Position numbers and translations under genes: made by a program
Shown here: piece after piece, positions 45,747 through 49,493 of the stretch
Layout: each line of letters opens with the position of its first letter
Position numbering within the stretch: position 1 is the first letter of the stretch
Assembly: GCA_963793265.1 (NCBI GenBank)
Contig: CAWBZI010000001.1
Location: 32,001 to 96,000, forward strand
Reading direction: 5' to 3'
DNA length: 64,000 nt
From: an uncultured cyanobacterium
Lineage (GTDB): Bacteria > Cyanobacteriota > Cyanobacteriia > Phormidesmidales > Phormidesmidaceae
The notes under the pieces: generated by a model
Databases searched by the model: none
The model's input: the letters and a program-made list of their open reading frames with translations, nothing else
What the model was told of the DNA's origin: nothing

Positions 45747-46127
45747 TCATATCGCTGCCTCTGCCTCTTTTATCACTCGCACTACGTCTGGTTTATCACT
45801 TACAACGACAGACTCTGGAAGATGCTTGTGATGAGGACAGGTAGGTAAGTCTGGGAAATGGGGAGTGCTGTCATAGCGAAAAAGTAAGCTATTTTGGCTG
45901 TCTTGGCAGTGATAGCGATAGTCGAGCGAAACTAGCTGATCATTTTTAACCTGAACTGCTTCATTAACCGCTAATAGGTGGCCTTGGCTAAAGCGAATGC
46001 GAATACGTAAGTTAACGCGCTCTGGAGTCAGAACCTCTTCGACATAGCGTTCTACGTAAGCGGATTTACACTGGGTAACCGCTTGCTCTACCCGATTCAA
46101 ATAATCAGACAGGCGCTTATGCAGCAT
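45747..46127 (-). CDS. tumE: DUF6516 / TumE-like toxin
   Basis: YRYH...FRYDSTPHFPDL...PHHKH motif. Confidence 0.75.
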   Translation of the reverse strand: MLHKRLSDYLNRVEQAVTQCKSAYVERYVEEVLTPERVNLRIRIRFSQGHLLAVNEAVQVKNDQLVSLDYRYHCQDSQNSLLFRYDSTPHFPDLPTCPHHKHLPESVVVSDKPDVVRVIKEAEAAI

Positions 46128-46347
46128 ATTGCAGCTTTTTTTCCAACACGCTACGAATTTCAAGATAGTGCTGATAGTCGTTAGCCCACTCAATAAAGAC
46201 AATATCGTCAGAGATCAGACCGTCTTTGTATTGGTCAAAGAAATCCTCTGAGTTAAGACCCTGCTGGTTTTCGTAAATGCTTAGCCGCTTTGTGACAGCC
46301 ACTAGAGCGTCAATGGGAGTCGTATGTTGTATGACTTGCTTTTTCAT
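46117..46347 (-). CDS. tumA: TumA-like antitoxin
   Basis: YENQQGLNSEDFFDQY..G...D...FIEW pattern; 11-nt overlap with the toxin gene. Confidence 0.7.
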   Translation of the reverse strand: MKKQVIQHTTPIDALVAVTKRLSIYENQQGLNSEDFFDQYKDGLISDDIVFIEWANDYQHYLEIRSVLEKKLQYAA

Positions 46348-48723: not shown

Positions 48724-48773
48724 CGAACCCGCCCCGCCCTAGTCAGATGGCGCGCAGCGACGGGGTGGGTTCG
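48724..48773. repeat. GC-rich inverted repeat (REP-like) downstream of the small ORF
   Basis: CGAACCCGCCCCG ... CGGGGTGGGTTCG, 13-bp arms with one mismatch. Confidence 0.55.
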
Positions 48774-48803
48774 GCAACCCTAACGGACAGCCAGCGCTAC
48801 CAC

Positions 48804-49067
48804 TTAATGCTCCTTCTGCACACGCTTAATCAAGATACAGGTCACCTCATCAGCCTTACCCGTAGCAAGCGGCCTGCTCCAATCATTAACTTCGGCGTAG
48901 CCTAGCTGATGCAACTGTCGAATAGTCGTTTTCACCGCTGTAGGCGCACCCGTCAGCATATGCCGAATGCGGTTCGGGTCGTCCTTCTGCGGCGTAGTTG
49001 GCGGCTCGTAGCCATTGGCAAATGAAGCTTTGGGCGTGGGTTCGCCCTGGCTAGCTATTGTAAACAT
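48804..49067 (-). CDS. Small hypothetical protein (87 aa)
   Basis: AGGAG SD before ATG; RHMLTGAP.AV..TI..LH.LGYAEV.DWS resembles a family I recall from cyanobacteria (not verified). Confidence 0.65.
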   Translation of the reverse strand: MFTIASQGEPTPKASFANGYEPPTTPQKDDPNRIRHMLTGAPTAVKTTIRQLHQLGYAEVNDWSRPLATGKADEVTCILIKRVQKEH

Positions 49068-49308
49068 GAGATTCTGATCTCCTACGTTTGTTGTTTTGAG
49101 GAAACCAGAACCCAACAGAGCAGAGCCACCCCGCAACTTGGATGCAAATCGGGGTGGCTAAAGGATACAGTGTATCCTAAGCCGCCAGACTGCTGTAATC
49201 AGTGTGGGGGTGAGCCCTCGGTTTGGTGCTGGTTACACCTGCCGAGGGTGCTCGACAAAATTGAGTTCTGATGAAACGGGCGTGATAGGCATCACAGCCT
49301 TAGTACTG

Positions 49309-49337
49309 ACCATAGGCTGATTTTCTTTTGCAGTCAA
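49309..49337 (-). promoter_or_regulatory. sigma70-type promoter driving the structured leader and small ORF
   Basis: TTGACT-17 nt-TATGGT on the minus strand. Confidence 0.55.
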
Positions 49338-49493
49338 GCTGATTTCACGACAAAAGCAGCTTAATGGAACCTAAAAATATCCGAAAAATTTGACCTAATT
49401 GACTCAGATAGTGACCCTGAAACCTCAAAATCGATCTACGGTATTGTACTAACCTATTTTTTGCGTGCAGGTGATAGGTACCTGCCGAAGCCC

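Follow-up and report, generated by a model that had tools for sequence, protein, structure and literature searches.

A structured leader with a predicted antisense RNA in front of a multicopy cyanobacterial gene family: a candidate type I toxin-antitoxin-like switch

Why should a gene encoding only 87 amino acids be preceded by an untranslated leader of about 235 nucleotides, and what might such a gene be for? These questions are raised by a locus on the minus strand of the window (the whole 64,000-nucleotide stretch of DNA analysed here, to whose positions unprefixed coordinates refer), where an open reading frame (48804..49067, with its ATG at 49067) is flanked by genes for a DoxX-like protein and an aminotransferase (the latter named from its sequence) and where the predicted fold of the leader is much more stable than expected by chance (z -5.35; 0 of 200 shuffled sequences). 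A first-pass annotation, made from the letters alone, had proposed a self-contained RNA-regulated cassette resembling type I toxin-antitoxin (TA) or phage c4-type control. Each of the elements that it listed (i.e., promoter, repeats, hairpins, the AGGAG ribosome site, the ATG and the 87-aa ORF) lies where it had been placed. The notion of a self-contained cassette has likewise held up: leader and ORF recur together, and a protein search combined with a covariation check finds the leader conserved and its stems covarying across families.

Copies of the cassette and their distribution

An iterated profile search of this genome finds 24 paralogues of the ORF, which form two subfamilies of 12 (termed here A and B); 23 of the 24 have the same promoter and ~235-nt leader. 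A covariance model of the leader, trained on 29 A-type leaders, yields 23 strong matches in the genome (E ≤ 6e-10), every one directly 5' of a paralogue and 13 of them outside the training set, including all 12 of B type; seven weaker matches are partial. The remaining paralogue (L066, G000:C4:698547-698765) lacks a leader and is 5'-truncated by a toxin-antitoxin-like gene pair. Within this genome RNA and ORF are coupled one-to-one.

More widely, the protein occurs in at least 60 of the family's 61 genomes (matches per genome range from 0 to 73) and the leader RNA in at least 44 of the 151 genomes of the class, over 10 families; one draw of 151 genomes from the phylum contained the protein in at least 21 and the RNA in at least 14. 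One family (f7) has the protein in at least 8 of 22 genomes and, among the matches listed, the RNA in 0 of 22. When 185,579 species were scanned for an exact motif, 74 matches resulted, 72 of which are titled as cyanobacteria; strains of Microcoleus, Coleofasciculus and Leptolyngbyaceae are among the carriers. Comparison with 19 congeners identifies the cassette at this locus as an accessory insertion: in none of them does the RNA adjoin the aminotransferase gene, and the nearest relative has a different gene in that slot.

The GC hairpin downstream of the ORF (48724..48773, minus strand), which had been counted as part of the module, proved to belong to a separate repeat: the 23-nt core of this hairpin has 10 genome copies at three or fewer mismatches, and the 3' hairpins of other paralogues are unrelated to it. 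The hairpin may end the transcript. The repeat is REP-like, occurs here and at nine more sites in the genome, and deviates in its right half in this copy.

Leader folds and the predicted antisense RNA

The leader would be transcribed from a sigma70-type promoter, TTGACT-N17-TATGGT (49309..49337, minus strand), with a predicted start site near 49302. A lone promoter-like site is at chance level at this locus (1 found, 1.0 expected); among homologous leaders, TTG-N16-19-TAnnnT occurs 5' of 92 of 98, compared with 11±3 in shuffles. The inverted repeat CAGCCT/AGGCTG that had been noticed around the -10 (49319-49314 and 49300-49295) is indeed present, with 6 bp here only and 3-5 bp in the other 21 copies scored; it is peculiar to this copy and was rejected as a component of the module.

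Next on the minus strand are a 5' hairpin, H0 (49282..49295), which differs from copy to copy, and the 5' strands of two long-range helices, P1 (49270-49263) and P2 (49253-49250). These are followed by two hairpins that can form on either strand, H1 (49212..49253) and H2 (49189..49203), each with a hypervariable loop (49229-49235 and 49193-49199, respectively); by H3 (49153..49186); and by H4 (49124..49159), the 10-bp stem of the off state, with which the 3' arm of H3 competes. Finally, a switch strand (49113-49099), which includes the 3' strand of P1 (49113-49106), can pair either with the 5' strand of P1 or with an arm (49083-49070) containing the Shine-Dalgarno (SD) sequence AGGAG (49083-49079). 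H2 and P1 were absent from the first-pass annotation. The palindrome at 49162-49178, which it had taken for an operator, is instead the core of H3: of 99 leaders, 4 have perfect arms of at least 8 bp, and in 92 the arms extend to 1-3 bp.

Patterns of compensatory change indicate that the leader has two mutually exclusive folds: a closed fold (P1, P2, H1, H2, H3 and inner H4), which would leave the SD free, and an alternative fold (full H4 plus an anti-SD hairpin), which would hide it. In a plain MAFFT alignment, pairing reaches 90.6% for the closed fold, 19 of whose 40 pairs show two-sided changes, and 89.3% for the alternative fold, where 17 of 35 do so; the covariation score of either was reached by 0 of 500 shuffles, slid controls scored far lower, and RNAalifold returns the closed fold unprompted. 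H1 and H2, which are common to both folds, hold most of the two-sided changes, and all four pairs of H2 covary. P1 is paired in 232 of 232 cells, with one two-sided change within A type; across families its sequence is wholly replaced with pairing kept (two-sided changes at 8 of 8 pairs in a model-fitted alignment, in agreement with inspection by eye). For the SD helix pairing stands at 90%, and 3 of its 10 pairs show two-sided changes.

For this copy the predicted energies of the on and off states are -94.1 and -94.6 kcal/mol, and the predicted probability of P1 is about 1.0 as the transcript grows from 49104 to 49080 (that is, while the SD emerges) and about half later. A start codon was found for 84 of the 99 leaders; of these, 68 adopt the closed form when folded only up to a point short of the SD, and 34 when folded at full length. 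The ribosome site is masked chiefly by a 14-bp hairpin (49112-49099 with 49083-49070) and not by the short GAGAT/ATCTC pairing to which its partial masking had been attributed. H4 resembles a terminator in the B subfamily, since a U tract follows it there; in this copy no U tract follows H4.

Several features point to an RNA transcribed from the opposite strand. Two invariant bases of the H3 loop correspond to -11A and -7T of a plus-strand -10 box (TACAGT, 49166..49171; family consensus TGn-TAAAAT). Defined as a hexamer with -11A and -7T and at least 4 of 6 matches, this box occurs at a nearly fixed distance in 98 of 99 distinct leaders, versus 31±4 when shuffled, and the same test is passed by 45 leaders on the sense strand and by 17 in the H4 loop; an extended TG accompanies the antisense box in 41 of the 99. 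A held-out set of 69 loci, taken from the exact motif scan after five overlaps were dropped, has the box in 68 (10±2.8 when shuffled), 52 of them with TG, the sole miss being a copy that is cut off at H3 and has no ORF. Because the leader sequences are related, and kin are not independent, these shuffle margins overstate the difference. No antisense -35 element is conserved among the 99 leaders.

Wobble pairs tell a similar story. H1 contains 102 sense A.C versus 5 sense G.U cells in the model alignment (32 versus 2 in the MAFFT alignment); since an A.C mismatch in the sense strand is a G.U pair in the antisense strand, the wobbles of H1 fall on the latter, where this hairpin appears to be selected, whereas P1, H3, H4 and the SD helix show the opposite bias. 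In 96 of 99 leaders, and in 62 of 65 held-out ones, the antisense version of H1 is predicted to be the more stable. Within six sets of close paralogues, each from a single genome, the per-site difference is 0.29-0.71 in the H1 and H2 loops, versus 0-0.17 in H3 and 0-0.35 in the H4 loop, and the H1/H2 loops are distinct in all 23 copies of this genome. The pattern of antisense signatures spans ten families.

Taken as a whole, these features make it likely that the leader is switched by a cognate antisense RNA. In this copy the RNA would start near 49178, where the first-pass annotation had suggested that a plus-strand transcript might begin (the TACAGT box that it had singled out is the conserved antisense -10), and would extend for about 85-95 nt through two stem-loops to about 49262-49272, its 3' end being uncertain. 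Two observations count against such an RNA: there is no universal antisense terminator, a U-rich tail being present after antisense H1 in 36 of the 99 leaders, this copy not among them, and YUNR loops are not universal either, such motifs occurring in only about half of the antisense loops.

A mechanism may be proposed as follows. The nascent leader would first close P1 and P2, whose 5' strands would capture the anti-SD strand and open the ribosome site, leaving the SD free as it emerges. Each copy would make its own antisense RNA of about 85-95 nt, the loop-loop binding of which during transcription would release H4 and the anti-SD hairpin, thereby flipping the leader to its SD-hiding fold and, in those copies where a U tract follows H4, terminating transcription there. 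The geometry suits such a role: an antisense RNA from 49178 to 49270 spans the 5' strands of P1, P2 and H3 and no strand of the off state. Diversified loops would allow dozens of copies to coexist without silencing one another, and the protein would presumably appear when a copy enters a cell that lacks the cognate RNA or when transcription stops (due to a phage or stress, for example).

When the antisense region was blocked in folding calculations, predicted access to the ribosome site went down in 29 of 84 leaders, went up in 7 and was unchanged in 48, this copy (0.21 to 0.23) among them; the mean moved from 0.33 to 0.28. Blocking has little effect in many leaders because, at full length, these already fold into the off state. 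Since folding at equilibrium thus favours the proposal only in part, regulation would need to be kinetic and to target a transient open state.

The encoded protein and other cargo

The 87-aa ORF matches no Pfam, NCBIfam, PHROG or PADLOC family and, specifically, no toxin, defence or phage family; there is a weak match, for one homologue only, to PHROG 6336 (of unknown function), a sequence search of the PDB gave nothing useful, and Atlas clusters of the protein are all hypothetical and cyanobacterial. Its predicted structure consists of a disordered N-terminus and a confidently modelled, conserved beta-alpha-beta domain. Fold searches with this model reached neither Z ≥ 5 nor a Foldseek E < 0.001: MinE heads a flat Foldseek list (E 0.33) and by VIA-align (Z 4.6, rmsd 3.2, 59 residues aligned) is tied with unrelated folds, without a Pfam hit; ribosomal uS10-like domains show a weak resemblance (Z 4.7).

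The protein is predicted to be a homodimer. Modelled in three copies, it pairs through strand 1 (beta1-beta1) with a score of 0.54 versus 0.01 for the best control, a contact agreement of at least 72% and a pLDDT of at least 74, although one of three runs scored 0.02. In a calibration that differed from the present job, 20 of 30 homodimers of solved structure and 1 of 23 single chains attained the mark used. A 163-aa homologue (P0019) with two matched stretches is perhaps a tandem domain fusion, consistent with the predicted dimer. Uncorrected pN/pS ratios of 0.13, 0.42 and 0.27 in three groups indicate that the domain is under purifying selection.

The leader also precedes other genes. The 168 leaders are followed by a member of the 87-aa family in 129 cases, by a second family in 16 and by some other ORF or no match in 14, the remaining 9 being cut by contig ends. 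Among the 129 family ORFs, 106 are intact by a strict rule and 23 are flagged, of which, by eye, most look intact and a handful broken. The second family (~120-200 aa, 438 relatives) corresponds to no known family; members at L146:300-890, L191:1126-1503 and L105:1159-1503 have an alpha/beta head followed by one or two three-helix repeats, with a weak likeness to T4 UvsW.1, and a fold search returned only generic helical bundles, barely covering the N-terminal part. Further cargo includes winged-helix proteins (a weak HTH_36 match), once in an operon arrangement, and a 72-aa helical protein (L115, L119, L122, L131, L134, L137, L139, L140) that recurs in genomes G226 and G242; at most of the latter loci a short ORF lies between the SD hairpin and the gene, which suggests translational coupling. 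At one locus (L112:1690-2328) the RNA is followed by a 213-aa ORF directly 3' of a gene resembling that of a tRNA-modification GTPase; by eye, this ORF has a PD-(D/E)XK-like motif, and it has no Pfam or PADLOC match.

Conversely, the protein can occur without the RNA, which is absent at all 25 loci of such homologues that were tested. An HTH or RHH gene lies just 5' of the homologue in 16 of 26 RNA-less loci scanned (E < 0.01), from which it follows that the gene is usually under dedicated repression. At four loci (L014, L023, L052, L056) a DUF7662-XRE gene is directly 5' and an inverted repeat spans the -35 and -10 of the ORF promoter; this repeat is likely to be the true operator of the repressor-controlled form. 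At a number of RNA-less homologues (L002-L005, L010, L016, L024) the leader is short and contains a single H1-like GC hairpin, which is duplicated in L003 and may represent a minimal antisense target.

Among the neighbours of the cassette are genes for PIN, HigB, Fic, DUF433 and DUF4258 proteins, and 6 of 24 copies have a Uma2 gene no more than 1.5 kb away, compared with 2.7% of random sites, by a profile that was itself seeded from those six neighbours. Control by either a repressor or an antisense RNA of the gene's own, together with location in toxin-antitoxin hot spots, is most simply accounted for by a harmful cargo, and harm upon expression is on balance somewhat favoured here as a property of the protein.

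Related systems and competing explanations

Structured leader RNAs that repress small downstream genes, and that are dispersed on chromosomes, are familiar from the phage P1 c4 and P4 CI immunity RNAs, which are processed from the same strand as their target. The c4-type control suggested in the first-pass annotation is not supported: the evidence here concerns an opposite-strand RNA, and Rfam searches gave no match to c4. The window contains 0 Rfam matches at the gathering threshold (best E at the locus, 2.2), and ten homologous loci match no riboswitch or other curated family (best E, 0.076). That best value belongs to a sub-threshold SymR match, at one of the ten loci (L107:1611-1683, plus strand; 29.5 bits versus a cut-off of 61), which coincides with the predicted antisense RNA.

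The closest mechanistic parallels are plasmid countertranscript attenuators. RNAI of pSK41 and other staphylococcal RepA_N plasmids is described (in the pertinent part of PMC5703833) as a countertranscript of about 83 nt with two stem-loops that attenuates translation of rep, being complementary to the leader about 100 nt 5' of the start and causing a hairpin to form in which the ribosome site is occluded. The predicted antisense RNA of the cassette is similar, at about 85-95 nt, in having two stem-loops and in starting 111 nt 5' of the ATG; unlike pSK41, the cassette is chromosomal, multicopy and cyanobacterial, has no origin, carries cargo other than Rep (at this locus no Rep family is matched) and has loops that diversified within one genome. 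The same account describes transcription attenuation by pT181 RNAI and pIP501 RNAIII, where the 5' arm of the off hairpin is kept paired to a pre-emptor strand lying 5' of it, except when the antisense RNA removes that strand (PMC5703833). B-type copies, with H4 and a U tract, resemble these systems, whereas this copy lacks a U tract after H4 and the cassette has no replication function; a sequence relationship is not expected. The geometry of a countertranscript attenuator is found here: the predicted antisense RNA lies 5' of the ribosome site instead of over it and would cover the strand that prevents formation of the off hairpin.

The arrangement of copies, on the other hand, recalls type I TA families. 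Helicobacter aapA/IsoA is a multicopy chromosomal type I system in which, according to the portion of PMC5416894 dealing with it, a 5' UTR antisense RNA with two stem-loops achieves cognate specificity through kissing loops. The cassette shares these multicopy loci, a (predicted) 5' UTR antisense RNA with two stem-loops and loop-based specificity, and was likewise found through its RNA fold. AapA is described there as a 30-aa membrane peptide, IsoA as covering the ribosome site directly, and activation as requiring 5'-3' pairing and 3' processing (PMC5416894); the cassette differs in encoding a soluble 87-aa protein, in placing its predicted antisense RNA off the SD and in giving no sign of 5'-3' pairing. 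The TA-like architecture proposed in the first-pass annotation stands, without the 3' fold-back: cognate pairing between 3' UTR and leader, of the hok/aapA kind, was not found over 110 nt after the stop (mean rank of a copy's own 3' UTR, 11 of 20), and the 3' regions of the copies are unconserved.

Type I toxins are typically shorter than 60 aa and have a transmembrane helix, as characterized in sections of PMC2887945 and PMC8167048, whereas the present protein is of 87 aa with a soluble beta-alpha-beta model. Yet SymE and RalR, whose symE/SymR and ralR/RalA systems combine a soluble toxin with a cis-encoded 5' antisense RNA (in the part of PMC8167048 concerned with them), imply that a small transmembrane toxin is typical of type I but not obligatory. 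The cassette, which likewise would place a soluble protein under such an RNA, differs from them in matching neither the SymE nor the RalR family, in that symE and ralR are single-copy and in that SymR overlaps the translation start (PMC8167048, same part). By these comparisons the cassette would work in the manner of a countertranscript attenuator, is arranged like a multicopy type I TA family and, as tested, is a member of neither. The main text of Fozo et al., in the sections bearing on this, mentions no cyanobacteria (PMC2887945), PMC5126843, in its relevant part, treats type I toxins in general terms only, and the literature search found no description of the element in cyanobacteria, with an unnamed entry in the supplement of a large RNA-motif survey being possible; the RNA switch family is real and apparently undescribed.

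The explanation preferred here, tentatively, is that a two-state leader and a per-copy antisense RNA keep a probably growth-inhibiting protein off, as a type I TA-like selfish or abortive module. A broader and more conjectural form of this proposal posits a cyanobacteria-wide family that combines plasmid-style attenuation with a soluble novel effector, interchangeable cargo and hypervariable loops serving as a per-copy address code, such that up to dozens of orthogonal switches might operate within one chromosome as an abortive-defence or addiction network.

The same antisense switch could instead govern harmless early or establishment proteins of mobile DNA (with roles in anti-defence, recombination or replication help, and expressed briefly on entering a naive cell), of which the chromosomal copies would be stranded remnants. 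It is in keeping with this idea that the leader fronts unrelated ORF families, that homologous ORFs occur on 13 plasmids, one adjoining parG and a replication gene, and that the alternation of repressor and leader parallels the pLS20 family, where, within the part of PMC8708921 on the establishment regulons EGeRS1/EGeRS2, variable small genes are reported behind either a repeated structured leader or an RHH repressor. EGeRS1, however, is 400-600 bp long, plasmid-borne and from Bacillus, is without a constitutive promoter and is not described there as having an antisense RNA (PMC8708921). Nor was a mobile context seen for the copies: no integrase, relaxase or phage gene appeared among 92 neighbours scanned, phage and viral collections gave no match (to the extent that an exact motif and a single peptide pattern can reveal one), and both plasmid copies tested lack the RNA, a leader search of plasmids having yielded chance matches only. 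With loop diversification and purifying selection apparently ongoing in chromosomal copies as well, the remnant hypothesis seems rather unlikely.

It is quite improbable that the genes are host stress or developmental regulators tuned by antisense RNA, with the switch setting a low level of a small adaptor that forms dimers, may resemble MinE and act on division, and is neither selfish nor lethal. Such a role would suit the near-universal presence of the protein within its family, the predicted beta1-beta1 dimer and the rank of MinE in both fold searches, but those fold scores are below any useful mark, copy number varies from 0 to 73 without synteny, and a host regulon would be expected to have one common regulator in place of per-copy loops.

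Less probable still is a cis-acting riboswitch or autoregulatory leader, wherein the closed multiloop is stabilized by a ligand or by the encoded protein, any antisense transcription being incidental. The nearly equal energies of the two folds, with an anti-SD hairpin, conserved bases at the leader junction and the weakly uS10-like alpha/beta fold could all be read in this way; the fixed antisense -10, the antisense wobble bias and the hypervariable loops would go unexplained, however, the cargo families are unrelated and none is metabolic, and Rfam offers no riboswitch match. Passive spread of a non-autonomous repeat, its structure kept for mobilization as single-stranded DNA, would fit dispersed, patchy copies in accessory hot spots and is scarcely credible in view of strand-specific wobble signatures and conserved promoters on both strands, a protein domain apparently under purifying selection and flanks in which no terminal repeats are evident by eye.

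If the antisense switch is real, then filamentous cyanobacteria harbour an abundant, uncatalogued family of cis-regulatory RNAs, countertranscript attenuation reaches from plasmid replication to large chromosomal gene families, and the naturally orthogonal loop pairs offer those who engineer cyanobacteria a ready-made set of RNA switches.

A TumE toxin/TumA antitoxin pair, both members of which score above the NCBIfam cut-offs, lies within the window at 45747-46347 on the minus strand, 2.5 kb from the cassette.
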